This document shows, one piece after another, positions 34,771-64,000 of a DNA stretch of 64,000 bases. The position numbers and the translations under genes were made by a program. Source of the stretch: Clostridia bacterium (lineage in GTDB: Bacteria > Bacillota > Clostridia > Christensenellales > CAG-917); contig JAZLBO010000022.1 in NCBI GenBank assembly GCA_045613765.1, forward strand, positions 15,854-79,853, read 5' to 3'. Each line of letters opens with the position of its first letter. Position 1 is the first letter of the stretch. The notes beneath the pieces are model-generated. The model worked only from the letters and a program-made list of their open reading frames with translations, had not been told where the DNA came from and searched no databases.

Positions 34771-34777
34771 ATTTCTC

Positions 34778-36328: not shown

Positions 36329-36358
36329 TGTTTTCTCAAAATCAATAGTTTATCTATG

Positions 36359-43713: not shown

Positions 43714-46700
43714 TTAGCCTGCGATTGTGATCTTCACTCTTTCGCCACTGCCGATTTGGACGTTGATGACTGCGTTGCTTGTGACGGTTGTGGGCATGAT
43801 TGTTGACACGTATGCGAAGACCTTTGAGAACTTGTCGCCATTTGCGTGTTTTTCCCAACCTGTACCACCGTTGGTTGCTGCGACAAACGTCACGTTGCCT
43901 TCACTGTCAACGACGGGATTTTCCACGGTAAAGGTGACTTTGAGTCCCTTGGGGAAACTGCCGAGTGAGAGATTGTAGCCTACTGATGCAACTCCGTTGA
44001 CAACTGCTGATGTGTATGCGCCAGTTGAGTATCTTGTTGCTTTGATCTTGGGTGATGCCACTCTTTCTTCGTCAACGTAATAGACTGTTGTGATCTTTGA
44101 CACTGTCATCTTTTGGACGAGGAAAGGAATGTTGAGGTTTTGTGAACTTCCGTCAGGACCTGTGAGCACTGCTGTGAGATATGTGATGCCACCGGTGTAT
44201 GTGGGACGGAAATCTCTCATTGACCATGCAAGTTTGTAGGTGTTGTTTGTTGTTGAGAATGTGATTTGTTCTGTGCCTGTGGCTGTCTTGACTTCAACTG
44301 TCAATGAATTGGGAAGGCTCAATGTTGATGAATAGTATTCATAGGGGTTGATGTATGTTTGAGTCTTGCCTGTGCTGTCTTGCCACATATAGCCTACGTT
44401 TGATGTAAGGCCACTATTTGCGCTTTCAACGATACCTACGGCTGTTCTGTCAATGATGACGAGTCTTGCTCTTACAGATTGTGTGCCGACGCCAAATTCG
44501 CTGCCGTCAAGGATTGCAGTGATGTTGTATGTTCCACCTTGGCAGTTGACCTTGGCAATGCCGAAGTCCCAAGTGACGGGAACATTGACTGTGTTGCCAC
44601 CTTCAACAGTGATTGTTGCTCTTGCAGGGAAATACTTGTAGTTGCCTGTTGAGAGTTGTTCAAAGACGTTGGGTGTGACGAAGGGGTCAAACGTGAAGGT
44701 CAAAGTGTTGTCTGTGACTTCCATATAACTTGACACTGCATCACTGTCAACAAAGTCTGTTGCATCTGCACTGATTGCCACTGCCGTGCCGTCAAGGACG
44801 AAGATGGGCACTTTGACTTCTGTTGATGCTCCACCGTTTGACACTGTTGCATAGACATAGTTGTCGCCACCCTTGACACTGAGTGCTGTTTGGTTTGCGT
44901 TCCAATCTACTTCAAGTTGTTGACTGACTGTGTAAACGAAGACGTATGTGTTTCTTGCTGTGCCTTGTACGTCAACCACTGTATAGGTCTTTGTTGTTGA
45001 ATCGTATTGATAGTAGGTGGGTGTGCCAATTCTATCTCCGTTGCCGTCCACTGCAACTCTGCCGTCAACGACTGTGCCGTTGCCAAGGACTTTGTAGAGA
45101 TATTCGCCAGTGGTCATGTATCTTGACATTCTATAACTATTTGATGCAACCTTGTTCCATTCTTCAAGTGAGATGAACTTGCCATCGGGGTAGAAGGTGG
45201 TTGTTGCAAGATAGTTGTTGGTATTGTACACACTGTTGCCGTTGTCTGCATCTTCATATACTTCAAATGAATCATAGAGCAAGTCGTTTGACATATTGTG
45301 AGATGCGATTGTGCTGTTGTGTCTTGTGACACTGACCTTCTTCACTGTAAATGTGAGTTCAAATGAGAAAAGTTCGAAGTCCATTGTGCTATTGGGATAG
45401 ACACGGGCTGTCACTTTGTATTCATTTGTGACTGTGACGTCAAAGTTTTGTGAGAGTTGGTCAATGCCGTCAAGGACAACGTAGTAGCGCTTGACTTCAC
45501 CTGTCTTTGCAAATGTGATGTCAATTTCATTGGGCATTGTTGTGCCTGCCACTGCAAAGCCATTGTAGAAGATGACTTCTGTGGGCATATTTGTCTTTGC
45601 ACTGTACACCACATCAACAAGGTTGCCGAGTGTGGTGTCTGTGCCGACGTATTTGATTGTGTAAGAACTGCGTGAATCTGTGCGTGTTGCCTTTTCAAAT
45701 TCAGGTGTGACAAATTCTGCTGATGAAACTTCTCTGCTCAAGACGACAACGGGGATATTGACTTGTTGTGTTGCGCCCATTACATAACGGCTATCGTCGT
45801 ATGTGCCACCAACTGCATCTGCTTCTGCCACTGTGCCGTAGCGCGTGATTTCAATGCCGTTTGACATGTAGGTGTACTTGACATAAGTTCCGTCTGTTGA
45901 AAGTGCGTATGATCTAAATGTGACCATATAACCGGGGTTTTCATAACCCTTTGCACTGATGAGTGAATCATCAGGCCATTCGGGAACAAATGTTGCCACT
46001 GTGCCGTCGCTGAGATATGCTTCGATTTCAAGAGGCAATCCAAGGCCACCTTCACGGAAGGTATCATAACGATAAGGATCAACTGTGATTGAACGATACA
46101 TGGGGTTGACGATCTTGTCGATTGTTCTGTCCATGACTTCGCAGTTGACTGTCATCTTTTGTGATCCACCGGGATATGTAAATGTGATGTCGAATGCCAA
46201 TGTCTTGCCGAAGTAGTTGACTGTGTTTGTAAACAAGTCTTGAGGCAATGTGTAGTCTGCGTTGACTGTGACGACTTCATAGATTTCTGTGCCGTCTGCT
46301 GCAGTGCCAACTGTTGCAAGAACTTGTTGTGCGCCCTTTCCAAAGAGTGTTGTTTCAACACCGAGAGGATCGATGACAAATGTTTCTGTCATGTTGACGT
46401 CTGCATAAGCAATCTTTGTTGCGCTGACTGAAAGCATAACCTTTGTTTCAAGTTTGACACCGTTTGCACTGATTTCAACGTTGACTGTGCCGTCTTCGTT
46501 CAAACCTGATGTGATGTTGCCGTTGTTGTCGTACTTGACTTTCCAGTTGAGTTTTGCAATGTATGAAACGCTCTTGCTTTCCTTGTCAGGATAGATTGTT
46601 GCACTTGTAGGAAGTCCGTTGTAGAACTTGTCTGCTGTCAATGTGTATGCAAGATCACCTGCTGTGCCAAGACCTTCAACTTCGTATGCGTATGCAACTG

Positions 46701-49700
46701 CGAAGGTATATTCTGCACTCATGATGTTTGCACCAATGTATGCTGTTCTTGTAAATGTGCCTGCCTCGATTTCATCTGTTGTAGGTGCGCCTGCGCTCCA
46801 AACAACGGGGACGCCTTCCTTGGTGGGTGTGCCGTCATTGTACACCACGTCTGCCACTGTGGGCAATGAGAACTCGCCAAATGCGTTGTAGATGAGGTTG
46901 AGGTTCTTGGGTGCAGTGAGAATTGTATCGACGTTTTCTGCGCCTGAAACGATTGTTTCACCGTTGTCGCCAACGAGATAAATCTTCACTTCAAATGAAT
47001 CTCTTGCAGGATAGACGATGCTGCCTTCATTGTAGAATTGGACTTCACGGATGACGTATGCACCGTTTTCGTCTGTTCTAAAGACCATCTTGCCGTTTTC
47101 TTCCACAAAGTCTGTTGCAAGTGAACCGGGTGTGCTGTCATCAATCCAGTTGACCTTGACGTTGGTCATTGTTGTTGCAACTTGTTCGCCCTTGACTGTG
47201 ACTGTTGTGGGAAGTTGCCATGCCTTGAATACGTTGTATTCAAATGAAGGAACTTCGTTTACGAAGTTGAGTCCTGTGAGTGTGGTGTTGCCACCGAAGA
47301 ACTTCACTGAACTATCTCCTTCAAGTGTCATTTCTGTGATTGCAAGTGAAGGAGTTGCAAGTTTGACTCTAAATTCTTGTGCGCCTACGGTTGCGATTGC
47401 ATATCTGTCGCCACCAACAGAGTTGACTGTAAATCCACCAAGATTCCAATCACGGACAAATGCCATTTCTGTATATTGTACGCCATCTGTTGTGTATGTG
47501 ATTGCAACTGCTGTGCCGTTTCTATAATCGCCCCACTCTCCAACTCTGAAATAGTTTTCAGAGTTGAGAATGTAGTGATATGTTGAAAGGTTGTAGGTCT
47601 TGCCGTCAAGGACGTATTCTGCATAGCCACTTGCTGTGTAGTTGTTGATGTCTTCAAGTGTTGCTTGTGACAATGTGTCGATTGCGCCACTTGTGATCAT
47701 ATCAACGTTGCTTGTGTTTGCAAGGAACTTGATTGATTTGATGTCCTTTTGAGGCACTGTAAGTCTAAGTTTGATGACTTGTGCTTGACCGTTGTGTGCG
47801 CCGTAAGGTACGCCGTTTGCATCCACCAAGAGATTGCCGTCTGCATCACAGGGATTTGCCTCTACCGTTGCGTAGAATGTGCCACCCTTGAAGATGTTGT
47901 CAACTTCCTTGGTGTATGTTGCATTGCTGTAGTACTTGACTGTTGACCAATCGGGCTTCATTGTGTGGTCAGGTGTTCCCTTTTCCTTGAAGTTGATTGT
48001 CAAGATGTTGTACTCATCTGAAAGGTTGTACCACTCAGGATCAAGAGTATGTTCACGGTTGACTGTAAGTCTATAGACGTTTGCAGTCATTGCTGTGACG
48101 TTGATAGGCACGTAAATGGTTTGTTTTCCACTCTTTTCTGTGCCGATATCAAGTTTTGCGTAAAGGTCTTGACCTTCGTAGCCGAGATATGAGAATTGTT
48201 CTCTTGTGACGCCCTCTGCAATGAGTGAATATTCACCGTCAACCTTCACGAAAGGTGCTGTGATTGTAAGTGAACTGCTGTCAAGGACGACAGGTTTGTC
48301 AGTGCCTTCAAAGATTGCCTTGATGTTGGTTGCAAATGATTCACCATTGATGACATCACTTGAATATGTGTCAAACGTGAGAGATTCTGTTTCAAGTGAA
48401 CTGAACACTCTGCCTGCAATCTTGACGGGGACTGAAACCTTTTGTGCGATTGCACCGTTGCCGGCTGTCAAATCGCCATCGCCAACAAATCCGTAGATAG
48501 GATCGCCATTGTCATCATAGCCTGTGACGTAACGGAATACGTTTGCGCCGACCAATGCTGTGACTGTGACGTCAATGCCCTTGTAGTAATCGTATGACAC
48601 TGAACCGTCTGCGCCTACTACCTTGATTTCTTCAAGGCGTTTTTCAAGGTTTGTAAGATCCCATGACACTGAAAGGTCTTGATATTGACCACTTGTGTAC
48701 TTGCCGTTTACATAGACAAATGTCTTGATGTATTCAGCGATTGAGTTATTAAGACTTGCATCTGCAAGGATGCTGTCAAGATCTCCAAATGCATCAAATG
48801 ATGTGAAGTTTGTTCTCTTGTCTGCATCCGTTGCGTTTGCTGATGTTGTTGTTGAGAAGTTTGCAATCTTTGCAGGATCGATTTCGTATCCCTTGACTGA
48901 AACTGTGACACTGCTTTCTGCGACTGCACTGAAGCCCCATTGATATTCAAAGTTGACGTCCACTGCACCACCTTCCCAGTTGAATGTGTATTCGTCGTAT
49001 GCGATCCAACCGACGGGGAAGTTTTTGCCTGTAGGCAACTTGTTGTAATCAAGGACTGCGTATTCAACGCCTTCAACAGTTTCTGTGACAACCTTGTAGT
49101 ATGTGCCACCTTCCACTGCACTGCCAACTGCCACTGCCACATATCTATCTGCCAACTTGGTGTACAAGCCCATTGTGAGTGCACCTGCGTTGAAGGATGA
49201 AATATCGCTTGCTGTTGCAACTGTGTACTTCAAGCCTGCAGTGTATGCATATTCAATCTTGTACTTGTTGCCGTGGATGTTGACCTTTTGATTGCCGTTG
49301 ACGTCGTTGTCAAGGACTTTATTGCCCTTTGCACGTGCATAGACCATGTCGCCATTGATGTCTGTGAGCACTGTACCGAAGGTGTACACCTTGCCGTTTT
49401 GGAACTTGATTCTCACAAGGTCAGGCATTGAAGGATTGTACTTGTTGCTGTCTGCATTGATGTCAATATTGATTGCAGATTGATTGAAGGTTGAGCCAGA
49501 TTGTGTATATGCGTACACGTTGGTAAGTGCGTATGCAGTTGTCGTATAGACGGGGATTGCATACATGACTTTGTTGAGTACGTAGCCATATACGTGACCC
49601 GCAAGATATTCGCCACTTGATGTGAGTTCTGCTGCACTGAAATCAATGGTTGATGCGTCCCAAATGATTGTTGTACCACCAAGGTAGTTTGTGTCGCCGG

Positions 49701-49775
49701 GGTTTGTTGATCCCACTGAGTCATATCCCTTGCCCGTTCCATTTGCCCAAGTGACCTTTGCCTTTTGAGGGAAGA
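43714..49775 (-). repeat. C-terminal array of degenerate Big_4-like (bacterial Ig-like, group 4 pattern) modules within the giant ORF
   Basis: Recurrent pattern [LF]-P-x-x-[AV]-x-V-x-[YW]-x-[DN]-G...V-x-W-[DS]...G-x-[YF]...V-x-V. Examples: FPQKAKVTWANGTG...IIWDAS, LPTTVTVKGEQV...VKVNWID, LPTVADVVYNDGTPTKEGVPVVWSA, FPARATITVEGGNTVNVPVTWDF. Confidence 0.55.
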
Positions 49776-52700
49776 TACTGGGATTTTCAAGGGCAGACTC
49801 GTTGAGAGTGATTGGCTTGCCGTCTGCAGTTGCTGCTCTTGTTGCAATATCTGTGACGATGATCTTTTCAGGAGGTGAGGATACTTGGTCACCGATGGTT
49901 GTTTCTTCAACCTTGGACACTTCCATAAATCCAAGCATTGCCGTGTTGTTTGAACCACTACCATCATTGTCGTAGGGGTTCATACGGAGGACGAAGTAAT
50001 CCCAACCACCGTTGTACATACCACTACCGAAGAAGTTGTCGCTGGTAGATGCATTGTCAAGACTGCTGAGTTCAACAACGCCACCACTGTAGCCGTAGGT
50101 CTTGCCCAAGTTATTTTGTCCCTTATAGATACCGTGGTTTGTATAAGTGTTGACAACTGTGCCTGCCTTTGTCTTGCTTGAGTTGACGTAGAGTTCAATT
50201 GCTTGAATACCACTGTACATCTTGAAGGTGCTGTTTGATGCAAAGCCGTAGTCGGTCTTGTTGGGGTTGATATCGATATAGATGCAGAGTGTAGGATCTG
50301 CTGCGCCTGCTTGTGCAAAAGGTATAGGCAAGATTGATGCAATGAGTTTTGATATGTTTGCAACAACGCCGTTTGCAAGTCCAGATGCCGCACCAAATGC
50401 TGCTGTGCCAACCATCTTTTCAACCACATCATCAAGGACCCACTTTGTCATTGCTGTAGGCAATGATCTCACAAGAGGTTCAAGGATGTTGACTCTTGCT
50501 GCAGTGTTGCCTGCCTTGCTGAGTTGGTCGAAGATGCTTGCAATATAACCCTTTTTATTTGCACCAAGTGATCTGTCTGCGCTCCAACTTTCTCCACTTG
50601 ACGTAATACCGTTGCCGTTGTTTACTGCAAGTTTTGCCATGTCGACGAAGTAATGTCTATCACTATGGCTATCAATACCTGTGTTGGTAAGACCGTCCAT
50701 TTTTTCTTGGAGCAAGCCAAGGACCATTGTGTACACGAAGACAAGAAGTTCGTTGTATGAATTCTTGTTGAGTGTGACCTTGATGGACATGTATCTTGTA
50801 TCGTCTGCCTTTGAAGGATCAAGTGCTTTCATGCCTGAGTAGTAAGGCACGTAGCCGTTGCTGTTGAACAAGTTCATTTCAACTTTCTTGAGAAGTCCTT
50901 CAAGACTCAAAGGATAACTGTACGTTGCTGCTGAATCACTTTCTTCGCCACTGCTCATTGCTTCACTTGCAGGATAACTGTAGGTGTATTGATCGCCATC
51001 CTTGTTTGATGTGAGTGCGATGAAGTGTGAGCCGTCTGTATTTGTCAAGGGGAATCCACTGACAAGGCTGCCAAGCAAACTGTTGAGTGTATCGCCCAAG
51101 AAGTCGAAGTCTGTGATGTACAAACTGTTGTTGAAGAAGTCGATTGATGCGCCCATTGCGCCACTGCCGTCACGTCTGTTGGGGTGAGTCATTGATGCCT
51201 TGAACGTCAATCTGTTGGTTGTGACGCCGTCACGGGTGACGTTTGCACGTGTTCCTATGAGTTCCACTCTCGTTGCAACGTTTTCTGTGATAACGTTGTT
51301 GCTTGTTGAGAGAATTGCGCCGTCAACCGTTGCTGTCCAGACACGCTTGTCGATTGTAATCTTCAGTGCAGGATTGAGTGATTCAATGACGCTTTGGACT
51401 GTTGCCATCATACCTGCAGTTGATGAGAGTGCAAGACCAATCTTTGCGCCCTTGAGTTCGTTGACTTTTGCGTTTACGTCAATCAAAGGCTTGTTGATTG
51501 ATGCGCTAATGCCACTGATGTCAACACCAAGGACTGTGTTGTGTCTGTCAAGAACGATTGTTGTGTTGACTGTTGTTGCGCTAAGGCCTTGGTTCAAGTC
51601 ATAGTTGATGCCTGCGCTGATTTGTTGGATGGGGAATCCATCAAGCATATCGCCAAGGTCAAGACCGAGCAAACTGATGAGTGTATTGATGAGTGCGCTA
51701 TCTGCCTTGAAGCCGATATATCCTTCTTGGATGTCAAGTTGGATGTCAACGCCACCAGTTGTTGCGCTTGCTGTTGCATCTTCTGCTGTTGATGATGCTT
51801 CGCTTTCGCTTGCGATCATACCACCGAGAAGTCCTTCAAGGTCCATACCTGCACTGCCACTGTTGGGATCGGTATTCATAGGATTGAGGATACCTGCCAA
51901 GCCATGGAAGTTGATGAGGCCAAGACCAAGACCTGTTGCATCAATGTAGAGTGAGTCTGCAAAGATCTTGTTGACGTCTGTTGTTGCCACAAGGTCATAG
52001 ACGTTGCCGTTCTTCTTAAGACCTGTTGAGCCAAGATAGTAGATTGCAAGGAAACTCTTGTTGGGAAGAATATCATCAATGGTGATGTCGATTGCAAAGT
52101 CACTGTACATGATGCCTGCAATACCCTTTGTGAGAAGTGCAGGAACATTGATGTCTGCTTCAACGTCAACGTTGATTGTGATAGGTCTTTGAGGCAATGT
52201 GATGATGAACTCGGTGTTCTTCAAAAGATCGATTTCGCCAACGAAACTCAAGATAAGGCTTTCAAGCCAGCCAACGAAGGTTTCGCTATATTCGGGGTTG
52301 AGCTTGCCGTTTGAATCGTACTTGGTGATACCTTCTGATGAGAGTGTCATTGACACTTCAAGTGTAAGGCTGATTGTTTCAATGCCGATTTGACCTGTTG
52401 TCACGTTGTATGCTTCGGTGTATGCAATGACGTGATCGCCGTTTCTATCGAGTACATAGTGTTCTTCAACATACTTGTATTCGCCATCCTTTGATGTGAC
52501 GTATTCACTGCCGACCTTTGCATAGCGTTGACCTTCATAACCTGCCTCTGCAAGTGCGTAGCCTGCTTCAACTTTGTTGTATCTTGTGCCTGCGTACTTA
52601 TACTTGCCGTTTGCAGATTCGGTGTAAGAGCCGTCTGCTTGTTTGTCGTATGTTTGACCTTGATAGTTCAAGAGTTCATCACCTGTGAGTTCAACAAATC

Positions 52701-55700: not shown

Positions 55701-58700
55701 CTTGTGCCTTAAGTTCGCCAATTGCGTTGCCAATCTTCACGTATGCTTCTTCATAAGATGCATTATCGTCACGGACAAAGTTGCCGTAGTAGAAGATGTG
55801 GTTGTCTGCAACGTCGCCGTCAACTTCAATGCTACCCTTGTAGATTTCAATTCTTGAGTTGAAATCTTCCATTGTGCCGAAGTCGATTGTTGAACTGTTT
55901 TCTGTGCCGTTGAAGAGTTGTGTTTCAAGGCCGATTGTAAGGATACCCTTTGTGCCGTCTTCGTTGTAGAGATTGATATTTACACCTGCTGTGTAGGGGT
56001 TGAGTGTAAGGTTGACTCTTGTGTCAAAGTTGGGGAGCATATCGCCAAGTTCAACACCGAGAAGTTGAAGGAGAACTTCAACAAAGCCCTTTGTGATTGC
56101 AAGTGTAAGTTTTCTTGTGTAGATATTGATATACACGCCTGCGAGTGCAGGATTTGCATATCCGTCAACAAGACCTTCTGCTGCGCTTGCTTCTGCTGTG
56201 CTTGCTTCACTGCCACCAAGTGCGATTTCGCCTGAAAGGATACCTGCAATGAGTTCTTCAATTGAGTATGCACTCATATCAACTGCAAGTTTTCCACCTT
56301 CGCCGAGCATCCATTCAAGATCAAGATAGAGTGCTGCTTCGCCAGTGTCGATATCGTGGTTGTAGTAGATGCCGACCATGTGTGTGAGTGTGCCATCTTG
56401 ATAATTTTCGCCATCGTTTTCTCTGCGCCATACGTCAATTGCAAGGTCGAGATCAAAGATGTTGAGTTTGATTTCAGGTTTCCAGTCAATACGATATGAA
56501 ATGTTGATCTTGATTTCAAAGAGCATTTCTTCTGTGAAACCTTCAAGGACTCTAATCATTGCATTGTCAAGGTCGCCAACAATACCACCAAGCACTGAGC
56601 CAAGTGATTCTTCAACGCCTGTTGAGTACAAGACGTATTCGCCATTGTTGTATTGTTCGTAGTTGCCTTGGACAAATGTGTAACGGAGTGAAGGATCAAT
56701 GTCTGCTTCTGTGATTTGTTCACTTGCTGACTTGCCTGTGTTGACAAGTGCAAGATAATCTTCAACTGTCATGTAGTCATAGTAACCACTGACTGAAAGA
56801 CCACCACGGACTGTGAGTGCGATAAAGAACATATCGTCACTGTCAACGTACTTGATTTCTTCTCCACTTTCGTAGAGTGCAAGGTGCTTGACTTTTTCAA
56901 GGGTTGAGTCTGTGTTGACTTCCCAATCCTTTGTTGTGAAGTATGTTGCAAGATATTCGCCCACGGGCATATATGATCTTGTCCAACTGTCATACACGCT
57001 AAATGTTGTTTGTTCTGCTGTGTATGTTGCAAGTCTGTCTGCATCATAAAGTTCTTTGACCTTGCCGTCTGCACTTGTGAGTGATGTGCCAAGGACAAAT
57101 GCGTTTTCGTTCCAATTCCAGACGTATTCGCCATTGTTTTCAATTTCTGCAAGTTCCATCTTGTGGGTTGCTCTTGAAACAACGTTTTCTACTGTTGCAC
57201 GTTGATAATAGACTGTGCCGGCAGGTTCTGTGCCGTCTGCACGGACATAACTGTCACGATACCAAACTTGCTTGTAGAGTGCGTTTGTTGTAATTTCTTC
57301 GTAACGCTTGATGCCGAGTTCTGCAAGTTCAAAGTTGATGAAGAATGTACGGCCGTCTGCCATGAAGTCAACCATTTCTCCATCTGCAAAGTCAACTTCT
57401 GTATAGACTGTTGATGCAGGTACGTAGTTGCCTGATGCATCAATAACATAGAGTGATTCTGCATTGATTGCATAGTATTCGCCTTGATAGTAGAAGTAAC
57501 GGACGTTGTCGTTGTAGTTGCCAACGATATCAAGGCCGTCTGCTGTTGTACCGACGATGCTTTCCTTGACAATCCATTCGTCCTTTGTATCTACACTGCC
57601 AACAAATGTGTATGCGTATTCGGGTACAATATAATATCTGTCCCCTGCAGGTGTGTTTTCGTCTGCAAGTACGTAGTTGAAACCTTCAACACTGATTTCA
57701 GGGAAACCAACGTTGACACCGATTTCATATTCCCACAAATAGACCATGACGGACATGATGGGCTTTCTTTCGTATTTTGCAGGGTATGACACGAGCATAT
57801 CTGCTTCATCAATTGCGCTGAATACATAGTATTCATTGTTTGCTGATGAATCAAATGATGCCACTGCATATTTGCCACCACCAACGTGATAGTATGCATC
57901 TTCAAAGTTGGTTGTGCCAGTCTTTGAATAGTACTTGAAGTTGTCACCTGACATTTCTGCTCTTGCCTTTTCAATTGCGCTTGCCTTTGAAAGTGATTGA
58001 TAGTAATGTCCGGTTGATGTCAAAACCTTAAGATATGTGTCGTATGCCTTGATGGAGTAGAATTCGCCTTGATATGCTTCAAGTTCTGCATCTGTCAAGT
58101 CTGCCTTTGCAACATAGACACCGTCAACAAGAGCATAGTTTCCATTTGTCACGCCATCTTCAATGAAGAATCTCATATCTGAGTTGCTTTCTTCTGCTGT
58201 CAATGCGCTTTCATAGTAATAGACTGCTCTGTCTGTGTTGAGTTGTACGTAAGGTTCTTTTGTAAAGTCATTTTCATTGAATTGAAGACCTGTGTCAGAT
58301 CCTGCAAAGACCAATGAGAGAACTTCGTTGATGAAGTTGCTGTTGACAACGATTTGGACAAATGTTGATGTCATACGTACGCCAACCAAGAATGCTGTGA
58401 CATATTCTGCAAGTTCATCATCCAAGAGAGGAATTGCATTGTCGATTGTGTCTGTAATGCCCTCTGCTGTTTGTGCTTCTGATCCACCGTTTTCAAGGCT
58501 ACCAAGGAGTGAGCCAAGGATGCTTTCGACTTCGCCGATATGATCGTTTACTGTGCTACGGATTGAGTCACTATTGACATAGAAGCTGGGGAGATTGAGA
58601 TAACTGAGATCAAGGAACAATCCACCTCTTTCACGTCTGTAATCGCCATTGGGGTTGTTGTAGTAGTAGGTTGCGTCGTATGCATAACGAGTCATACCAA

Positions 58701-61700
58701 CTGATTCAATACCTTCGGGATCATAGACGAATTCGCCTCTTGCTGCATTGTAATAGTAGTTGCCATTTTCGTTTTCAAAGTAATGGCTATAACGGTATTC
58801 AGGAGCAACATAGTTTTCACTGCCGGGTGTTCTTTCGTCTTGTGTCATTTCACGGTATTCACCGCTTTCCATATAAACACCCACGAGTGTATGTGTATCT
58901 GATACTGTATATTTTTCGTTGCCGTCAACAACAACCTTATCTGCTGTTGTTTGGACAATCATTGATGCGTTGATGTATGAAAGGATTTCACTGATTGTTG
59001 CAAAATCAAGGTTTTGGACTGCACCAGCAATGACGTTGATGATGTCTGTGACACTCATTTCTGAGTTGATATTGCCCATTTCATCATTGAAACCACATTG
59101 ACGCAAGTAGTTGAGAAGTGCTGCAAACTTGACTTCAACTGTCAAGACAACTTCAATCTTACGTGCAACGTCGCCATTTGCATCTGAAACTGCACTGATG
59201 ATGAGTGCAAGTTCTTCAGGATCCATTTGGGGGAACAACCATTCAAGAACTGCTGTCATATCAATATCACTGCCCTTGACAAATCTTGTTGTAAGGTCAA
59301 CTGATTCTGTGATGACAATTCTGTCAAGTTCTGTGACTTCGGTGTATTCCTTCAAGTCTTCTGCTGTCAAGTGATATTCGTGTTCTGATGTGAACTTGAC
59401 GTCAACGTCTTTCACTGCAACCATAAGGTTGACTGCTGTATCGTATTCGTTCAAGTTGCCTGCGCCATCACTTTCACGTCTAAAGTACTTGGTTGTAGGA
59501 TCGTCATTTGCGCTTGCTTTTTCACGGACGTAAACCACTGAAGGTCTTGCCCCATCGGGTGCGAGTGCTGTGTATGATTCGCCCTTTTCAATGTAAAGTT
59601 GTCTGCCCTTGTGGTCAGGATTGCTTTCATCATAGAGTACGAAGAAGTAGTCGCCTTCAACAAGAACTGTGCCGTCATAGTCAACTTCTTCAAGGACGGG
59701 TTCGTCAACTGCAACATAACGGCTGCCTTCCATCATGAACTTGACTGTTGTGTCAAGTGCCAATGCATCATCAAATGCTGCGTTGATTTCTGCTGATGCA
59801 AGGATCTTGTCTGTGATGTACTTGTCAAGGTCAAGACCTTCCACGAGCATATCAATGACTGAACGGATGAGTTTGTTGCTGATTGAGATTGTAAGTTTAC
59901 GCTTGCTGATGAGAAGGAGTGCATCTGCTTCGTCTTCTGCCACAGGTGCTGCTGCCATTGCTTCACTGCTTGCATCGTTCTTGGGAAGTTCATTTTCTGT
60001 GTAAATGTCTTCGTCAAGAAGTCCACCCAGTGTTTCGCTGATGAATTCTGCCACTGCAGGTGACGTGATGCTGAGTTTAGGCACGTTGAAGTAAGGTGCA
60101 TCAAGGAAGAACTTGCCACTGAAATAGTAGATGCCAATCCAGAGATTGTCTGCGCCTGTTTCTGCAATGTTATAGATTTCGATTGCCACTTCACTGTTTG
60201 CCATTTCTGCAAAGTCAACAACGAGAGATGTGTCAACACGGAAGTGTGCTGATGAATAACCCTTTGTTGTTGTGGGCATTTCGAGCATCAAGCCTTGGAC
60301 GTTGCCAAGAACATTGCTTACGATTGTGCCAAGGTCAATTTGACCTTCTGTGATGCCAAGGTCAATTTCCACTGATGCCTTGACTGACACTGATGTTTCA
60401 TAGAAAGGTACGATGGGGACGTACTTACTTGCATCATCTCTGTCTGTTTCGTTGAGAATATAGTCAGGGATAAGTGCTGTGCTGTTGCCACCGATTTGGA
60501 GTTCAAGGCCACCGACTGCAAAGCCGAGTTCAACGCCGTTGACGTCAAGGTTCAAACCAAATGAGAAATCTTTGATTTCTGTGTATGACTTGACATAGCG
60601 ATAGTAGTCGCCTTCTGCATCAATAACGTAACCTTGATATCTGTCTGCAAAGCCTGCAACGGGTGCAAACTTGCCACTTCTACGGACATAGTATTCTGCA
60701 TTTGCATCGTAGTGATCTGCGATATCTTCTGCTTTGACAAGGTTATAACTGCCGTCAACAAGTACGTAGAGTGAGTATTTTTCTGCATCAAAGTATTCAT
60801 ACTCAGGTGTGCCATCAACTTCGCCAACTTCTACTTTTGCATATCTGCCGTCGTAGTTGTTGTCTTTCCAAGTGATTTCATCATAGTATGTATATCTTTC
60901 GTTCAAAGGAAGGATGAGTGTGTAGATTTCCTTTTCTGCATTTTCTTCTTCTACAAGGATTGTCTTTTGCTTGTAGATTGCTTCTGCGCTGTCTTCTGCT
61001 TCTGCAAATGTGACACTGTATCTTACTGTGCCTTCTGCAAGTGCATTGACATCGTCAATGTAGAGATAGTAATCCTTTCCGTTGATTGTTTGCTTGTAGT
61101 AGTCACCGTTTGCATCTTCTTGTGCAGATGAAACAAAGTATTTTGCGCCTGTATAAAGTTCTGCAAGGACTTCTTTTTCAAGATCTGCATCTGCAGGATC
61201 AAAGAATTTTGCATATTCATACTTGCCCATTTCTGCATTGAGTGAAACTTCAAGGCTTTCAAAAATGTCAAGGATTGAGCCCATATCGGGGAGCAATGTT
61301 GCAATGATCACTGAAAGGAGTGTCTTGCTGATGAGCACTTGACTTGCAGTATTTGAGTAGATGAGTGAAATGACTGCACCTCTTTCTGCATCAACTGTTT
61401 CATCACTTGCTGCCATTGCTTCTTCTGTTGCAAGACCTTCGAGAAGGCTCATAACAAGTTCAACGAAGTTGGGCACTTTTGTATATGCTGTTGAGAGATT
61501 GTAAAGGCCTGTGCCGTCAATGTACAAGTCACCTCTGTAGAGATAGACGCCACCGAGAGCAACAAAGTCGCCGTTTGCATCTCTTACAGGAGTTCCCTTG
61601 TCATCTGTACGGAGAATTTCAAGAGCAAATTCGATTGTATCAAGGTCGCTTGTTGCAATAAATTCTGCAAGCATTGCTTCCACATTGTCGCCACCTGCAA

Positions 61701-64000
61701 GAAGTGCGCCAATGTTGAGTGCACTAAGGTCGCCTTGGAGTGAAATTCTTGCTGCAACACCGTCGTGGAATGCACCTGTTGTCTTTGCTTGGATAAGAAG
61801 GTCTGCGATATAGTTTTCAACAAGACCACCAAGTTCAAGTGTGGCAACGTCTTCACTGTCAAAGTTGATCATGACGTTCATGCCAACACCCAAAGTCATT
61901 GTGCTGAGGTTTTCATCCATAGGATACTTCTCGGGGTCAATGATTGACATGAGAAGGTCAATGTATGATGAGATTTCTGTATAGTCGTTCTTGTCAAGTT
62001 GTGAGAGAACGGGGCTATAATCTTCGTCTGCAACAGAGAGTGTCATACCTGCACCCATCTTGATGGTCATGCCTGTGCCTGACACTGTGGTGAGGTTCAT
62101 TGCAAGACTATGCTTGCCGTCCATTGTTGCATCGTTGAGTTTGATGAAGATACCACTTTCGCTTTCATCAAGATTGAACATATCAAGACGAATGTCTTGT
62201 CCTGTGATGAGTGATGCGATATCTGCAATGAGAGTTGAGTTGAGAAGGATATCAATTCCGTCAAATTTGTTGTACCAGAATTCGTCGCCTTCTTGGTATG
62301 CATTGCCACCCATACCGATTGCAGTGCTCTTGATGATGATGCGCTTGATGAACTTGTTGAGATAGTCAACAATGCCGGGTGCTGCAACTTCTTCGTCGGC
62401 GGCGGCTTGTGCTTCTTCTTCGCCACCAAGGACGCCAAACATATCAAGGATATCGCCAAGGTTGAACTTCACTTGAGGTCCTTTGAGATCGCCAAGGTTG
62501 ATGTAGAGATCGCCACCCAAGAGATAGATGCCGATTGACACTTCATCTGCTTCGCCATAGTTGAAGACCATTTCAACTGCCACTTCAAGTGCGCTCAAAA
62601 TTGTTTCAACGTCAAAGTTGAAGTTTTCAATGTCAAGTTTTGTAAGCAAATCACTTACACCAAGGACGCCAAGATCAACACTGCCTGAAACACGGAAGAC
62701 CACTGTTTCGCTGATAGGATCGTTCAAGTACATTTCAAGACCAAGTCTGTCAATGATTGCGCCAACAAGGTTCTTCACTGTGCCTTCTTCAAGACCTACG
62801 AGAAGGTTTTGGACTGCATCAAGGCTGAAGATTGTGTCAACCAAATCGCTGTAAACAAGAGGATCTTTGACGTACAAGCCGTTGGGATCTTGTGCATAAG
62901 TTCCGTCGGATTCACGACGTGAATATCTTTCATCGTCGCTGTAAAGTTTTGCTGTTGCTTCGTCAACAAGGATATAGGTGTCTGCAAAGTTGAATTGAAT
63001 TTCAAATTCAAGTTCAAATGCAACCTTTTCATTGTTTGCATAGTTGTTGAATCTGTCTGCACCGTTTTCGCCACCAACATATCTATAATATGTTGTTCCG
63101 TTATTTTCAAGTGTTCCTGTATAACGGACGTACATGCCATCTTCTTTTACGAAGACCTTGTCGGTTTCTGTGTTGACGTATGCGTATTCAACTGCACTGA
63201 TAACTGTGTAGTTGCTGTCGTTTTGATAGTGATAGATGCCGTCTTCAAGTCTTGCAGTGACAGAGTCAAGTCTTGTTGCTGCAATTCTGGGATTACGGAC
63301 ATTGATTGATGCGTTGACAAGGTCACTTGCAAAGTCAAATGACAATGAGCCACCTGCAAAGTCAACGTCAAAGTTGAGTTCAATGCCAAGTTCGGGGAGT
63401 TTCTTGATTGCTTCGCTGATATTGATATCGCCAAGGACTGAACCACCTTCTTCACTTGACATAACAAGTTCAACCACAAATGCAAGGATGCCAACAAGGG
63501 TTTGTTGTGTGATTGAAAGTGAAATTCTTTCACTTGCGATTGCAAGGACGATTTCAAGTGCTTCTTCACTGGTCATTGTTGCACTTTCTTCGCTTGCTGC
63601 CATGGCTTCGCCATCTTCTTCTGTTTCAGACCCAAAGATTGCACTGATTGTTTCAACAATCCAAGTTGAAATGCCAGTGTTTTCAATCATAAAGTCTTCA
63701 TTTGACAAGATGCCCATGTCAACGTAGAGTTTTCTACCTTGCAAATAGATGCCAATGATTGTGCTGTCTGCTGCTGCGTTTGTGCCTGCAACAAGGTTCT
63801 TGATTTCAATCACCAATTCTGTTTCTTCGGGATTGTCAAGAGAGATATTTCCTGCGATCAACATTTCAATGTTGACAAGCATATCCTTTTCAATTTCAAC
63901 GCCGATTGCAAGTGCAAAGTCTGCCACAAATGCTGAAACGATATCATTGATGGGCAATTCATCATTTTCAAAGTCTTGTGTGTCGCAGATTTCAAGGCTC
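43714..64000 (-). CDS. giant acidic modular protein, >6,760 aa, 5'-partial (runs off the window). Probable secreted/surface protein of unknown family
   Basis: ORF track gives 43714..63957 (6,747 aa). The 14 codons from 63958 to 63999 are also sense in frame (..SLEICDTQDFENDE-), so the ORF is open at the edge and the track's Met is a TTG artefact. Content is repeat modules plus Ig-like repeats. Confidence 0.9.
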   Translation of the reverse strand, partial: SLEICDTQDFENDELPINDIVSAFVADFALAIGVEIEKDMLVNIEMLIAGNISLDNPEETELVIEIKNLVAGTNAAADSTIIGIYLQGRKLYVDMGILSNEDFMIENTGISTWIVETISAIFGSETEEDGEAMAASEESATMTSEEALEIVLAIASERISLSITQQTLVGILAFVVELVMSSEEGGSVLGDINISEAIKKLPELGIELNFDVDFAGGSLSFDFASDLVNASINVRNPRIAATRLDSVTARLEDGIYHYQNDSNYTVISAVEYAYVNTETDKVFVKEDGMYVRYTGTLENNGTTYYRYVGGENGADRFNNYANNEKVAFELEFEIQFNFADTYILVDEATAKLYSDDERYSRRESDGTYAQDPNGLYVKDPLVYSDLVDTIFSLDAVQNLLVGLEEGTVKNLVGAIIDRLGLEMYLNDPISETVVFRVSGSVDLGVLGVSDLLTKLDIENFNFDVETILSALEVAVEMVFNYGEADEVSIGIYLLGGDLYINLGDLKGPQVKFNLGDILDMFGVLGGEEEAQAAADEEVAAPGIVDYLNKFIKRIIIKSTAIGMGGNAYQEGDEFWYNKFDGIDILLNSTLIADIASLITGQDIRLDMFNLDESESGIFIKLNDATMDGKHSLAMNLTTVSGTGMTIKMGAGMTLSVADEDYSPVLSQLDKNDYTEISSYIDLLMSIIDPEKYPMDENLSTMTLGVGMNVMINFDSEDVATLELGGLVENYIADLLIQAKTTGAFHDGVAARISLQGDLSALNIGALLAGGDNVEAMLAEFIATSDLDTIEFALEILRTDDKGTPVRDANGDFVALGGVYLYRGDLYIDGTGLYNLSTAYTKVPNFVELVMSLLEGLATEEAMAASDETVDAERGAVISLIYSNTASQVLISKTLLSVIIATLLPDMGSILDIFESLEVSLNAEMGKYEYAKFFDPADADLEKEVLAELYTGAKYFVSSAQEDANGDYYKQTINGKDYYLYIDDVNALAEGTVRYSVTFAEAEDSAEAIYKQKTILVEEENAEKEIYTLILPLNERYTYYDEITWKDNNYDGRYAKVEVGEVDGTPEYEYFDAEKYSLYVLVDGSYNLVKAEDIADHYDANAEYYVRRSGKFAPVAGFADRYQGYVIDAEGDYYRYVKSYTEIKDFSFGLNLDVNGVELGFAVGGLELQIGGNSTALIPDYILNETDRDDASKYVPIVPFYETSVSVKASVEIDLGITEGQIDLGTIVSNVLGNVQGLMLEMPTTTKGYSSAHFRVDTSLVVDFAEMANSEVAIEIYNIAETGADNLWIGIYYFSGKFFLDAPYFNVPKLSITSPAVAEFISETLGGLLDEDIYTENELPKNDASSEAMAAAPVAEDEADALLLISKRKLTISISNKLIRSVIDMLVEGLDLDKYITDKILASAEINAAFDDALALDTTVKFMMEGSRYVAVDEPVLEEVDYDGTVLVEGDYFFVLYDESNPDHKGRQLYIEKGESYTALAPDGARPSVVYVREKASANDDPTTKYFRRESDGAGNLNEYDTAVNLMVAVKDVDVKFTSEHEYHLTAEDLKEYTEVTELDRIVITESVDLTTRFVKGSDIDMTAVLEWLFPQMDPEELALIISAVSDANGDVARKIEVVLTVEVKFAALLNYLRQCGFNDEMGNINSEMSVTDIINVIAGAVQNLDFATISEILSYINASMIVQTTADKVVVDGNEKYTVSDTHTLVGVYMESGEYREMTQDERTPGSENYVAPEYRYSHYFENENGNYYYNAARGEFVYDPEGIESVGMTRYAYDATYYYNNPNGDYRRERGGLFLDLSYLNLPSFYVNSDSIRSTVNDHIGEVESILGSLLGSLENGGSEAQTAEGITDTIDNAIPLLDDELAEYVTAFLVGVRMTSTFVQIVVNSNFINEVLSLVFAGSDTGLQFNENDFTKEPYVQLNTDRAVYYYESALTAEESNSDMRFFIEDGVTNGNYALVDGVYVAKADLTDAELEAYQGEFYSIKAYDTYLKVLTSTGHYYQSLSKASAIEKARAEMSGDNFKYYSKTGTTNFEDAYYHVGGGKYAVASFDSSANNEYYVFSAIDEADMLVSYPAKYERKPIMSVMVYLWEYEIGVNVGFPEISVEGFNYVLADENTPAGDRYYIVPEYAYTFVGSVDTKDEWIVKESIVGTTADGLDIVGNYNDNVRYFYYQGEYYAINAESLYVIDASGNYVPASTVYTEVDFADGEMVDFMADGRTFFINFELAELGIKRYEEITTNALYKQVWYRDSYVRADGTEPAGTVYYQRATVENVVSRATHKMELAEIENNGEYVWNWNENAFVLGTSLTSADGKVKELYDADRLATYTAEQTTFSVYDSWTRSYMPVGEYLATYFTTKDWEVNTDSTLEKVKHLALYESGEEIKYVDSDDMFFIALTVRGGLSVSGYYDYMTVEDYLALVNTGKSASEQITEADIDPSLRYTFVQGNYEQYNNGEYVLYSTGVEESLGSVLGGIVGDLDNAMIRVLEGFTEEMLFEIKINISYRIDWKPEIKLNIFDLDLAIDVWRRENDGENYQDGTLTHMVGIYYNHDIDTGEAALYLDLEWMLGEGGKLAVDMSAYSIEELIAGILSGEIALGGSEASTAEASAAEGLVDGYANPALAGVYINIYTRKLTLAITKGFVEVLLQLLGVELGDMLPNFDTRVNLTLNPYTAGVNINLYNEDGTKGILTIGLETQLFNGTENSSTIDFGTMEDFNSRIEIYKGSIEVDGDVADNHIFYYGNFVRDDNASYEEAYVKIGNAIGELKAQGEIIPEDAVDVGNGVYHTDRKYYVKATEVYATESAFNSAVQTGILVYKRAEVRYAEVNNDSVFNVVISKANYIDMLNCWNITDKEYVVENIINSGTMEYVAPSRRYNIVGGVAVKAEGADFTHIEISPKATSIYARYISVYRAFETIEKYYIPAWDKDESGSLYYYDGDVRKEVEYDANGIAINLDTNETYYKAVDDFTNYNTIMSVDLGQIISGGEIDIFEMLKDLGTVELDMSLAIDLRLSDVINWTEQMTQFLSTELYDYFEFILASTDWDNGNFGANIGLVIDMKAKLNVQNLLDYVQNGGDIINALKGVELYFNITCTTNYFNENATIEVWMNIDNDGKLNLYMNLEELDKIVGLGDFFSKVKFEGLEIASLLGSLMDSEAQSSAETLGFEELGIENVTSSTGIIPEDIFGIVEMVLGQVLFGHDIIAIGFNDKLLVDLVKMLAPNFEGADYLPKLEITEDANTSGIVINLGGGSPSVGINLGFVVGYESYAEVSEYANYNGVKFSLVDDQYVVDGNGTHVKVSSDKYALVDYANSAWTGDRYVLEADGTTFTKVFSGFETAEAGYTGQRYELKNGQYVVSENGTLKKSANEFTLNADGKGAFVMLTAEDLAATKLTRYASYGTDGNRYLPVNSYEKLVGKTVADDRASYDVTTAGDYLLIGDLSLNMKVYGLGLYTNRDSLNIAQEDGEYVDADGKKVVDYADITKSTLNLTMAMDVSYYGSAKIGEEDNVIDLSEILDLVFGLVAPTSDMAGSTLRLNIINDMGSAEYPSAQVKLGAYIDLNNFGATEIAFEVVQYDKNGNVLDQPIVAIYLANDNVYIDASTILGETGKIYLGELGLGAMLDEILGGILNPTETVEDGEAMAATSTVAGGLSLHDWAFLQAMIHPQYFSLTLSMATINAIINRIYSEQGKELGNVLPNLGEVMFDSYGYAPVNGVDERPYIASFNIKMSDGFYASADVVNLEFGMHKKEGFGTTSLYEVYNSANATHKALGDRFVELTGDELLNYQGQTYDKQADGSYTESANGKYKYAGTRYNKVEAGYALAEAGYEGQRYAKVGSEYVTSKDGEYKYVEEHYVLDRNGDHVIAYTEAYNVTTGQIGIETISLTLEVSMTLSSEGITKYDSNGKLNPEYSETFVGWLESLILSFVGEIDLLKNTEFIITLPQRPITINVDVEADINVPALLTKGIAGIMYSDFAIDITIDDILPNKSFLAIYYLGSTGLKKNGNVYDLVATTDVNKIFADSLYIDATGLGLGLINFHGLAGILNPMNTDPNSGSAGMDLEGLLGGMIASESEASSTAEDATASATTGGVDIQLDIQEGYIGFKADSALINTLISLLGLDLGDMLDGFPIQQISAGINYDLNQGLSATTVNTTIVLDRHNTVLGVDISGISASINKPLIDVNAKVNELKGAKIGLALSSTAGMMATVQSVIESLNPALKITIDKRVWTATVDGAILSTSNNVITENVATRVELIGTRANVTRDGVTTNRLTFKASMTHPNRRDGSGAMGASIDFFNNSLYITDFDFLGDTLNSLLGSLVSGFPLTNTDGSHFIALTSNKDGDQYTYSYPASEAMSSGEESDSAATYSYPLSLEGLLKKVEMNLFNSNGYVPYYSGMKALDPSKADDTRYMSIKVTLNKNSYNELLVFVYTMVLGLLQEKMDGLTNTGIDSHSDRHYFVDMAKLAVNNGNGITSSGESWSADRSLGANKKGYIASIFDQLSKAGNTAARVNILEPLVRSLPTAMTKWVLDDVVEKMVGTAAFGAASGLANGVVANISKLIASILPIPFAQAGAADPTLCIYIDINPNKTDYGFASNSTFKMYSGIQAIELYVNSSKTKAGTVVNTYTNHGIYKGQNNLGKTYGYSGGVVELSSLDNASTSDNFFGSGMYNGGWDYFVLRMNPYDNDGSGSNNTAMLGFMEVSKVEETTIGDQVSSPPEKIIVTDIATRAATADGKPITLNESALENPSIFPQKAKVTWANGTGKGYDSVGSTNPGDTNYLGGTTIIWDASTIDFSAAELTSSGEYLAGHVYGYVLNKVMYAIPVYTTTAYALTNVYAYTQSGSTFNQSAINIDINADSNKYNPSMPDLVRIKFQNGKVYTFGTVLTDINGDMVYARAKGNKVLDNDVNGNQKVNIHGNKYKIEYAYTAGLKYTVATASDISSFNAGALTMGLYTKLADRYVAVAVGSAVEGGTYYKVVTETVEGVEYAVLDYNKLPTGKNFPVGWIAYDEYTFNWEGGAVDVNFEYQWGFSAVAESSVTVSVKGYEIDPAKIANFSTTTSANATDADKRTNFTSFDAFGDLDSILADASLNNSIAEYIKTFVYVNGKYTSGQYQDLSVSWDLTNLEKRLEEIKVVGADGSVSYDYYKGIDVTVTALVGANVFRYVTGYDDNGDPIYGFVGDGDLTAGNGAIAQKVSVPVKIAGRVFSSLETESLTFDTYSSDVINGESFATNIKAIFEGTDKPVVLDSSSLTITAPFVKVDGEYSLIAEGVTREQFSYLGYEGQDLYAKLDIGTEKSGKQTIYVPINVTAMTANVYRLTVNREHTLDPEWYNLSDEYNILTINFKEKGTPDHTMKPDWSTVKYYSNATYTKEVDNIFKGGTFYATVEANPCDADGNLLVDANGVPYGAHNGQAQVIKLRLTVPQKDIKSIKFLANTSNVDMITSGAIDTLSQATLEDINNYTASGYAEYVLDGKTYNLSTYHYILNSENYFRVGEWGDYRNGTAVAITYTTDGVQYTEMAFVRDWNLGGFTVNSVGGDRYAIATVGAQEFRVKLATPSLAITEMTLEGDSSVKFFGGNTTLTGLNFVNEVPSFEYNVFKAWQLPTTVTVKGEQVATTMTNVKVNWIDDSTPGSLATDFVEENGKMVFRTDENGAYVIREVQFYNEGSIVYPARDSFEVKIYLVGDNGETIVSGAENVDTILTAPKNLNLIYNAFGEFSLPTVADVVYNDGTPTKEGVPVVWSAGAPTTDEIEAGTFTRTAYIGANIMSAEYTFAVAYAYEVEGLGTAGDLAYTLTADKFYNGLPTSATIYPDKESKSVSYIAKLNWKVKYDNNGNITSGLNEDGTVNVEISANGVKLETKVMLSVSATKIAYADVNMTETFVIDPLGVETTLFGKGAQQVLATVGTAADGTEIYEVVTVNADYTLPQDLFTNTVNYFGKTLAFDITFTYPGGSQKMTVNCEVMDRTIDKIVNPMYRSITVDPYRYDTFREGGLGLPLEIEAYLSDGTVATFVPEWPDDSLISAKGYENPGYMVTFRSYALSTDGTYVKYTYMSNGIEITRYGTVAEADAVGGTYDDSRYVMGATQQVNIPVVVLSREVSSAEFVTPEFEKATRTDSRSSYTIKYVGTDTTLGNLVDVVYSAKTNMPTEVIFYNGFAVAGTTMPNEIDITFAKTGEVKRYYVVLDGIDQLSQNFDVTVTNEYKVTARVYPNSTMDFELFSFELTFTVKKVSVTRHNSTIASHNMSNDLLYDSFEVYEDADNGNSVYNTNNYLATTTFYPDGKFISLEEWNKVASNSYRMSRYMTTGEYLYKVLGNGTVVDGRVAVDGNGDRIGTPTYYQYDSTTKTYTVVDVQGTARNTYVFVYTVSQQLEVDWNANQTALSVKGGDNYVYATVSNGGASTEVKVPIFVLDGTAVAISADATDFVDSDAVSSYMEVTDNTLTFTFDPFVTPNVFEQLSTGNYKYFPARATITVEGGNTVNVPVTWDFGIAKVNCQGGTYNITAILDGSEFGVGTQSVRARLVIIDRTAVGIVESANSGLTSNVGYMWQDSTGKTQTYINPYEYYSSTLSLPNSLTVEVKTATGTEQITFSTTNNTYKLAWSMRDFRPTYTGGITYLTAVLTGPDGSSQNLNIPFLVQKMTVSKITTVYYVDEERVASPKIKATRYSTGAYTSAVVNGVASVGYNLSLGSFPKGLKVTFTVENPVVDSEGNVTFVAATNGGTGWEKHANGDKFSKVFAYVSTIMPTTVTSNAVINVQIGSGERVKITIAG
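50926..63609 (-). repeat. >=10 copies of a large (~280-760 aa) unclassified repeat unit, delimited by acidic Ala/Ser linkers, within the giant ORF
   Basis: Linkers lie at 63595-63609, 62377-62424, 61408-61422, 59950-59964, 58462-58494, 56173-56217, 54521-54559, 53089-53103, 51751-51813 and 50926-50973. Each is preceded by an IGIYLxGxxLYID-type hairpin and an LLGxL helix. Confidence 0.7.

Follow-up and report, generated by a model that had tools for sequence, protein, structure and literature searches.

Megadalton, modular and non-enzymatic surface proteins are known from Firmicutes, such as Ebh of Staphylococcus aureus and Embp of Staphylococcus epidermidis, which probably serve adhesion or envelope architecture and are built from near-identical helical FIVAR/GA repeats with a C-terminal membrane anchor. 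Here we describe a gene of this size class in a stretch of 64,000 nucleotides from a Clostridia bacterium (assembly GCA_045613765.1, contig JAZLBO010000022.1, positions 15,854 to 79,853 of the forward strand), called the window below, whose minus strand carries a single open reading frame (ORF) of more than 20 kb. Its product, the giant protein, is likewise huge, non-enzymatic, modular and predicted to be extracellular, whereas its beta-rich repeats share only about 16-24% identity, its predicted lipobox is N-terminal, and it has no FIVAR or GA match in Pfam.

Other described systems resemble the giant in part. It shares with the Gram-negative RTX (repeats-in-toxin) and BAP-type giants LapA, SiiE and MpIBP a very long, acidic and non-catalytic chain with Ig-like (immunoglobulin-like) arrays and a business end that would lie distal to the anchor. 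However, it has no RTX nonapeptides, no type I secretion system (T1SS) signal and no near-identical tandem repeats, and it comes from a Clostridia host, has a predicted lipoprotein tether and devotes two-thirds of its length to a non-Ig module. With the Big_4 (PF07532) surface proteins of Firmicutes it has in common a C-terminal third with Big_4 domains above the Pfam cut-off, but these make up a small share of the giant, the Pfam model misses most copies because of their divergence and the module array has no counterpart there. The likeness to AsmA/TamB and the eukaryotic repeating-beta-groove (RBG) proteins is confined to extreme length, an N-terminal tether and the order of secondary structure; the giant shows no profile or fold similarity to them and has extra hydrophobic helices, Tyr-rich inserts, an Ig array and no known partner membrane. 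Surface proteins of this size without enzymatic activity have been described before, and what is new here is a module without described relatives. A survey of giant genes (bioRxiv 10.1101/2023.11.21.568195) reported metagenomic giants of Omnitrophota, with many transmembrane (TM) regions and with SecA-like domains, and of mammalian-gut Clostridia, with RCC1, Listeria-Bacteroides, YG and dockerin repeats, and proposed a role in adhesion. None of these features was found in the window protein, and a single Flg_new domain (the Listeria-Bacteroides repeat) was found in 1 of 13 distant relatives.

The reading frame and its predicted N-terminus

The minus-strand frame that begins at position 63999 is free of stops for 6,761 codons until the first stop, a TAA at 43716-43714, and it is still open at the window edge (43714..63999; about residues 1,667-8,427 of the full protein). 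At the base composition of the gene, 5.6% of codons would be stops by chance, giving P of about 1e-170 for such a run. The start given in a mechanical ORF list is the TTG at 63957; all 14 codons that precede it are sense. The original prediction, made from the sequence of the window, had described this frame correctly as longer than 20 kb and open at the edge, while its start at 64000 has to be moved to 63999.

It had also described the product as acidic, rich in D, E, G, N, T, Y and V and poor in K, R and C, which agrees with our counts. The part in the window has a mass of 741 kDa, a pI of 4.26 and a net charge of about -521, with 14.4% D+E, 6.7% K+R and 0.12% C (8 Cys), and it is also rich in V, G, A, T, Y and N. 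The chain ends in GERVKITIAG after a beta-rich C-terminal tail (aa 6656-6761 of the window protein; 43717..44034, minus strand), which carries no anchor motif; pattern search, hydropathy and Pfam all failed to reveal an LPxTG motif, a TM segment or an SLH domain there, as had been claimed. The gene has its own intrinsic terminator, also foreseen (43620..43660, minus strand), in which a hairpin is followed by a U-run about 55 nt past the stop. The hairpin (about 43660-43625) has a 12-bp stem and a dG of -18.2 kcal/mol (z = -5.0), and none of 200 shuffled sequences was as stable. A simple terminator scan missed it, which its loop limit of 3-8 may explain.

The giant ORF is a real gene. For the closest ortholog, locus L001 from a sheep-colon Clostridia metagenome-assembled genome (MAG), the amino-acid identity is 73% over 3,990 aligned codons, with dN = 0.185 and dS = 0.859 (dN/dS about 0.22). 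The ratio stays between 0.17 and 0.26 across eight consecutive 500-codon blocks, and the whole compared length is under purifying selection. Seven full-length, colinear orthologs of 7,286-7,924 aa with 27-30% identity emerged when 1.84 billion representative proteins were searched exhaustively with a profile. Besides, two remoter family members represent 90%-identity clusters of 30 and 39 sequences (about 7,110 and 5,590 aa), which were recovered from many contigs, one of 1.04 Mb. The GC content of the gene (43-46%) is like that of its flanks. Self-BLAST of the protein returned a handful of matching stretches with 25-40% identity, and the longest direct DNA repeats in the gene are 30-37 nt, none exceeding 37 nt. 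A collapsed repeat or chimera is excluded by these weak self-matches, the lack of longer DNA repeats and the uniform dN/dS, and the colinear orthologs in independent assemblies show no sign of one either. The protein is modular as predicted, but it is not repetitive in the usual sense.

The orthologs are also syntenic. At the locus of ortholog P0004, the giant has the same neighbours as in the window, namely the SPFH/double-zinc-ribbon, Zn-ribbon, Gate-domain, MetRS (methionyl-tRNA synthetase) and TatD genes. Because of these syntenic orthologs, and because the window carries the ribosomal-protein/SecY/RpoA cluster, the giant is a vertically inherited chromosomal gene. It evolves much faster than its neighbours: the giant of locus L004 is 24% identical to the window protein, while the adjoining 285-aa protein is matched between loci at phmmer E-values of 1e-88 to 1e-128. 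Such fast evolution is usual for exposed surface proteins.

The N-terminus had been placed beyond the window, and orthologous frames do continue upstream. We scanned the GTDB representative genomes and got four loci (L001 to L004), in which the first residue of the window protein was aligned at locus position 10001. In these loci the giant frame extends about 5 kb further and begins with ATG (L001:5003). The L001 protein starts with MKKLKIALLIVLLISMVTCMFAC, which is followed, after the lipobox Cys boundary as drawn, by NDTPVTPPQPEPIIPVPP. All four start with MK(K/R)L(K/R)(I/F)ALL(I)(V/I)L...(F/V)AC, then N or S and a Pro-rich stretch; the lipobox reads LFAC before S in L002 and L003, and MVAC before N in L004. 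We defined a lipoprotein signal by a positively charged n-region and a hydrophobic h-region with [LVI][ASTVI][GAS]C at its end. Signal and lipobox occur in 67 family members, among them 20 of the 23 with at least 5,000 aa; the other three long members appear to be N-terminally truncated. The orthologs carry the signal, whereas the N-terminus of the window copy itself lies outside the window, so that the predicted anchor is N-terminal in the orthologs and, we infer, in this genome too. The earlier statement that there is no recognisable anchor thus holds at the C-terminus but not for the protein as a whole.

BLAST placed the first residue of the window protein at positions 1,540-1,670 of the orthologs and L001 placed it at 1,667, versus about 820-920 by MAFFT; the former two were used. 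Since about 1,666 residues would then be missing from the window, the full protein is estimated at about 8,400 aa (about 0.9 MDa), and the window ORF would represent the C-terminal 80% or so of what is predicted to be an extracellular lipoprotein of an uncultured gut bacterium.

The 5' leader of the gene (L001:4948-5005) is conserved upstream of the ATG in L002 to L005 as well, even among orthologs with 24-30% identity. A promoter close to the consensus (TTGACA-17 nt-TAAAAT) can be made out in it by eye; next comes GTATATTAGTCTGTGC, and a hairpin immediately precedes a GGAGG Shine-Dalgarno sequence. RNAalifold pairs the leader with the Shine-Dalgarno/AUG region, where 4 pairs show compensatory changes, and the leader has no match in Rfam. 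It may stabilise the messenger RNA or gate translation of the very long transcript.

Modules, inserts and Ig-like domains

The original prediction held that the N-terminal two-thirds are built from a unit outside the named families, and such a unit could be defined. A hidden Markov model (HMM), seeded on the weak self-matches and iterated, converged on a module of about 160 aa, which occurs in nine copies between aa 42 and 4136, with starts about 330-730 aa apart. All nine lie on the minus strand. Module 1 (aa 42-209; 63373..63876; family HMM E 1e-38) shows the motif IGIYLQGRKLYVDMG, and its acidic linker reads EEDGEAMAASEE. It is followed by module 2 (aa 441-622; 62134..62679; E 7e-34), module 3 (aa 771-925; 61225..61689; E 9e-30) and module 4 (aa 1251-1410; 59770..60249; E 4e-38). 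Module 5 (aa 1767-1923; 58231..58701; E 7e-31) covers profile positions 41-161, its N-terminal strands being diverged. Module 6 (aa 2500-2668; 55996..56502), also detected by the family HMM, includes the block most conserved among the orthologs (0.51 over aa 2519-2578). The last three are module 7 (aa 3048-3243; 54271..54858; E 4e-29), module 8 (aa 3542-3700; 52900..53376; E 1e-33) and module 9 (aa 3940-4136; 51592..52182; E 2e-26). A possible degenerate module 10 (aa 4301-4424; 50728..51099) was below the threshold of the iterative HMM and seen in one hmmsearch alignment, with the helix, the acidic linker and the following strands only. The known part of the L001 protein (5,695 residues) contains 13 copies, and four of these lie in the N-terminal part that the window lacks, suggesting about 13-14 modules in the full protein.

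Although the copies diverge to 16-24% identity, they share one order of elements: five strictly amphipathic strands, an amphipathic helix, an acidic linker, two strands, a hydrophobic helix, a variable stretch and a final strand. The strand region has the signature (I/V)G(I/V)Y(L/Y)..G.LY(I/V)D(L/A), the linker is acidic, of low complexity and centred on (S/G)EA.(A/T)A.E, and the strands after it (ISSEKL.ISLS) lead to the hydrophobic helix (..LIN.LI.LL). An AlphaFold2 model from a 19-copy alignment reproduces this order with a mean pLDDT (predicted local distance difference test) of 68; ten-residue blocks of the strand region average 64-91, the acidic linker is disordered and a short helix is added in the variable stretch. 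In four orthologs (P0006, P0017, P0026 and P0030) the acidic linker contains inserted Cys-rich knuckles of the form D(A/G)(D/N)G.G.CD.CG, sometimes in series, such as DADGDGVCDVCGA and DGKCDNCGG, while the window protein, with its 8 Cys in total, has none. Metal ions or disulfides could stabilise these knuckles as small inserts of an extracellular linker.

Between the modules lie segments with a different composition. Most of them contain 7.8-10.8% Tyr, versus 1-6% in the modules, while the segment at aa 623-770 has 3.4%. Tyr-rich stretches of the module region are found at aa 246-323, 921-986, 1016-1156, 1690-1818, 1978-2221, 2399-2465, 2883-2975 and 3767-3873, and the inserts carry recurrent hairpin-like motifs of the form G-x-R-Y...(D/N)G-x-Y. 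From composition, motifs and ortholog alignment, we delimited an indel-rich insert between modules 3 and 4 (aa 921-1156; 60532..61239, minus strand) and the largest insert (aa 1978-2221; 57337..58068, minus strand). In the ortholog alignment, the inserts near aa 250, 1000, 2800 and 3800 show 7-16% identity and 40-64% gaps.

The module array is joined to the Ig-like array by a less acidic junction region (aa 4137-4714; 49858..51591, minus strand), which has no Pfam match and contains strongly conserved blocks at aa 4372-4431 and 4547-4606. The following array (aa 4715-6655; 44035..49857, minus strand) consists of diverged Big_4-type Ig-like domains, at least 7 copies of which are detected by a family-specific HMM. 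Two of them exceed the Pfam Big_4 cut-off of 22.1 bits, at aa 5709-5754 (46738..46875, minus strand; 26.6 bits, E 4e-6) and at aa 6451-6499 (44503..44649, minus strand; 28.2 bits, E 1.4e-6), and the pattern LP..V.V.Y.DG....V.V.W can be seen by eye in further places. In the middle of the array (aa 5200-6000), the copy number differs between orthologs and the gap fraction is 0.25-0.75. Over the alignment with the seven orthologs, the conserved parts, with 30-50% column identity, comprise the modules, the junction and the Ig-like domains at either end of the array, while the inserts and the mid Ig array are poorly conserved (7-19% identity, 25-75% gaps). The C-terminal third had been taken for an Ig-type adhesin stalk. 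The Ig-like domains are indeed there, but the stalk role need not hold, since with an N-terminal anchor the array would be the membrane-distal end.

To place the protein, we searched it against several libraries. In the window protein, Big_4 was the sole Pfam match at E <=0.01, with no SLH, choline-binding, LysM, dockerin/cohesin, FIVAR or GA domain, and a relaxed Pfam scan of the C-terminal 2,400 aa added nothing relevant beyond Big_4. Among the 13 distant family members, Big_4 was matched in 3 and no other Pfam domain occurred apart from the one Flg_new. The NCBIfam scan gave no family for the module, PHROGs gave no match, and PDB sequence searches with single sequences and two profiles gave no related solved structure. 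Taken together, these searches leave Big_4 as the only assignment to a named family. Pfam and NCBIfam likewise detected no enzyme or toxin domain, in line with the predicted lack of a catalytic motif, and the homology to a characterised giant adhesin family that had been named as a possible refutation was not found. The other refutation that had been named, a chimeric frame made by a mis-assembly or collapsed repeat, fails too, as set out above.

Several known classes were rejected on this basis. A sortase-anchored or C-terminally TM-anchored adhesin does not fit, for the pattern search found no LPXTG-like motif anywhere in the window protein and no segment is TM-like, the maximum 19-residue mean hydropathy being 1.77, inside a module helix. 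An RTX/T1SS giant adhesin was dismissed in the absence of any match to the nonapeptide pattern GGxGxDxUx or to the Pfam family HemolysinCabind. Foldseek returned no match at E <=0.001 for either model in PDB, nor for the module model in BFVD, where the best match had E 7e-3 and a TM-score of 0.24. The negative PHROGs and BFVD results, and neighbours such as ribosomal-protein, MetRS, KsgA and TatD genes, speak against a phage tail fibre or prophage protein. An AsmA/TamB/RBG identity is unsupported as well: the window protein and the 13 relatives have no match to AsmA, TamB or DUF490-type Pfam families, hhalign of the module profile with Escherichia coli TamB gave a probability of 0.2%, and the Foldseek searches of PDB were negative.

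Possible roles of the giant protein

On balance, we think that the giant is probably a lipid-anchored, wall-spanning surface fibre or adhesin. In the proposed mechanism, the protein would be exported by Sec, lipidated at the lipobox Cys and cleaved by signal peptidase II, as its predicted signal suggests. Its N-terminus would then be tethered to the outer face of the cytoplasmic membrane, provided that the signal seen in the orthologs is also present in this genome. Behind the Pro-rich linker, the 13-14 or so alpha/beta modules, whose succession is observed, would form a polyanionic shaft that crosses the wall and projects past it. The Tyr-rich inserts, which evolve fast and are prone to indels, are probably exposed surfaces, and together with the distal Big_4 array they would bind external ligands. 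Both Big_4 domains and hairpin repeats rich in aromatic residues are typical of surface proteins that bind or act on carbohydrates, and for this reason glycans of plant fibre, mucus or other cells would be the most plausible ligands. With no catalytic domain, the protein would act as a structural surface fibre or adhesin. If the giant is the main surface fibre of these bacteria, it would shape their attachment to fibre, mucus and partner cells and would be a dominant antigen.

Several points weigh against this fibre reading. The module fold is moderately predicted, and the geometry of a shaft cannot be read from a 960-aa multi-module AlphaFold2 model (13-sequence ortholog alignment), whose pLDDT of 52 is too poor for higher-order packing. 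The N-terminus assigned to the window copy is extrapolated from orthologs of 59-75% identity, and we infer, rather than observe, binding, ligand, localisation and all steps past the lipobox. The reading also assumes a classical monoderm host. In canonical giant adhesins, Ig-like repeats form the shaft and a distinct domain forms the tip, and Pfam reveals no distinct tip domain in the window protein or the 13 relatives.

The same lack of a recognisable ligand-binding tip would suit a second explanation, which we rate as possible but clearly less likely, namely that the giant is an envelope scaffold or polyanionic coat in or on the wall, with a structural, cation-binding or protective function like that of teichoic acids or an S-layer and no specific external ligand. 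The net charge and pI of the window part are in accord with it, as is the acidic disordered linker in every module, and the conserved, syntenic position on the core chromosome near ribosomal-protein and MetRS genes suggests a housekeeping-like role. However, the indel-rich Tyr-rich inserts and the variable number of Ig-like domains resemble diversifying exposed surfaces more than a uniform coat, to build a layer from a single-copy protein of 0.9 MDa would be costly, and SLH or other wall-binding modules are absent.

It is quite unlikely that the giant serves as a conduit for lipid or another hydrophobic cargo, with the stacked modules forming an amphipathic beta groove like that of AsmA/TamB/RBG or TULIP proteins, which might reach another membrane or cell. 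The order of elements in each module, from five strictly amphipathic strands through a helix to a disordered loop, does resemble the repeating-beta-groove unit, and the predicted N-terminal membrane tether and extreme length would fit. Against this stand the TamB profile comparison and the Pfam negatives given above, and the Foldseek searches of PDB, in which neither model found a bridge-like, TamB or TULIP structure. Besides, the two hydrophobic helices per module could cover the hydrophobic face of the sheet, a monoderm host offers no second membrane, and such extreme surface acidity is atypical. We regard as very unlikely the bolder proposal that the module of about 160 aa is a new fold stacking into a continuous amphipathic sheet, which would make the giant a Gram-positive counterpart of bridge-like lipid-transfer proteins and a conduit or tether of about 0.9 MDa. 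If so, the giant would not be a passive adhesin but would move hydrophobic cargo out of the membrane and across the wall to a partner surface.

Finally, an assembly artefact, a pseudogene, or a mobile, phage-derived or toxin-delivery protein (a chimeric frame, prophage fibre or polymorphic toxin) is extremely improbable: the window probably comes from a metagenome assembly and the relative P0002 has an anomalous end, but the gene has no long repeats, is uniformly under purifying selection, has full-length, colinear and syntenic orthologs in independent assemblies, shows no PHROG matches in a core-chromosome context and ends in Ig-like domains without a toxin domain.

The wider family and the neighbouring genes

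The module profile matched 177 of the 1.84 billion representative proteins at E <=1e-3, including 32 at E <=1e-30, and many of the carriers are 5,000-7,900 aa long with 12-16 copies. The family was revealed by the exhaustive HMMER search, while a word-indexed search with the same profile found nothing. The members looked up come from Clostridia/Eubacteriales MAGs and are unnamed or labelled "hypothetical protein" or "Ig-like domain-containing protein", the latter being also the NCBI name of the closest C-terminal relative. Sheep colon and roe-deer cecum are among the sources of the MAGs behind the four GTDB loci. A full-text literature search found no description of the family. The suggestion that the architecture may be undescribed therefore holds for the curated libraries and papers searched, but not for the databases, in which 177 representative clusters share the module.

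The combination of features is unusual in three respects. An N-terminal lipoprotein tether is predicted on a protein of about 8,400 residues; the repeat unit covers about 60% of the protein and is invisible to Pfam, NCBIfam, PHROGs and PDB; and the gene is a strictly conserved, single, syntenic chromosomal gene across uncultured Clostridia of ruminant and other guts. Annotation pipelines leave this conserved gene of about 25 kb as "hypothetical". It is well-conserved protein "dark matter" with a predicted function, and the module merits a family definition and a structure.

In the ENA protein P0002, residues ~1691-1775, SALAFSLCLATITALSS...IILYFAIL, are not alignable with the family, and this end of about 85 residues looks like a frameshift or a chimeric contig end, so that database fragments of the family can carry junk termini. 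The contig of L004 (CAZQGE010000006.1; 38.5% GC) bears the label of an uncultured Bacteroidaceae MAG but has a Clostridia-type giant, the same leader and the same GH20/unknown-protein neighbours; it is probably mis-binned.

Upstream of the giant, a gene block (L001:1925-4503, L002:1427-4013, L004:375-3776, L005:2230-7577) is shared by the four orthologous loci that we annotated and encodes a GH20 beta-hexosaminidase and a strongly conserved soluble protein of about 285-300 aa, for which Pfam gave no match and which is the neighbour compared by phmmer above. L004 and L005 also encode a PIG-L-family deacetylase, and L001 and L005 an HGSNAT-like acyltransferase. A functional operon of the giant with the upstream GH20, unknown and PIG-L genes was not adopted, as a promoter-like site and a terminator of its own flank the giant gene. 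Because the synteny extends to housekeeping genes, it may reflect mere chromosomal conservation, as an alternative to a link with the processing of N-acetylglucosamine (GlcNAc) glycans.

Directly downstream of the giant, 42265-43392 (minus strand) encodes an SPFH/Band-7 protein to which several zinc ribbons are fused, and the product of 41230-42261 (minus strand) has 343 aa and a TFIIB-type zinc ribbon at its N-terminus. This pair has its own promoter-like site at 43599-43571 (TTGAAA-17-TATAAT), and the same pair follows the giant at the P0004 locus. Three ORFs of the window (32790-33953, 34288-34854 and 39114-39752) have no Pfam match. The rest of the window is core chromosome, with blocks at 16957-31675 (minus strand), 34778-39093 (minus strand), 4215-7887 (plus strand) and 15-1771 (minus strand), which hold the ribosomal-protein/SecY/RpoA cluster, the KsgA, radical-SAM, TatD and MetRS genes, an ABC exporter pair and a split transketolase.

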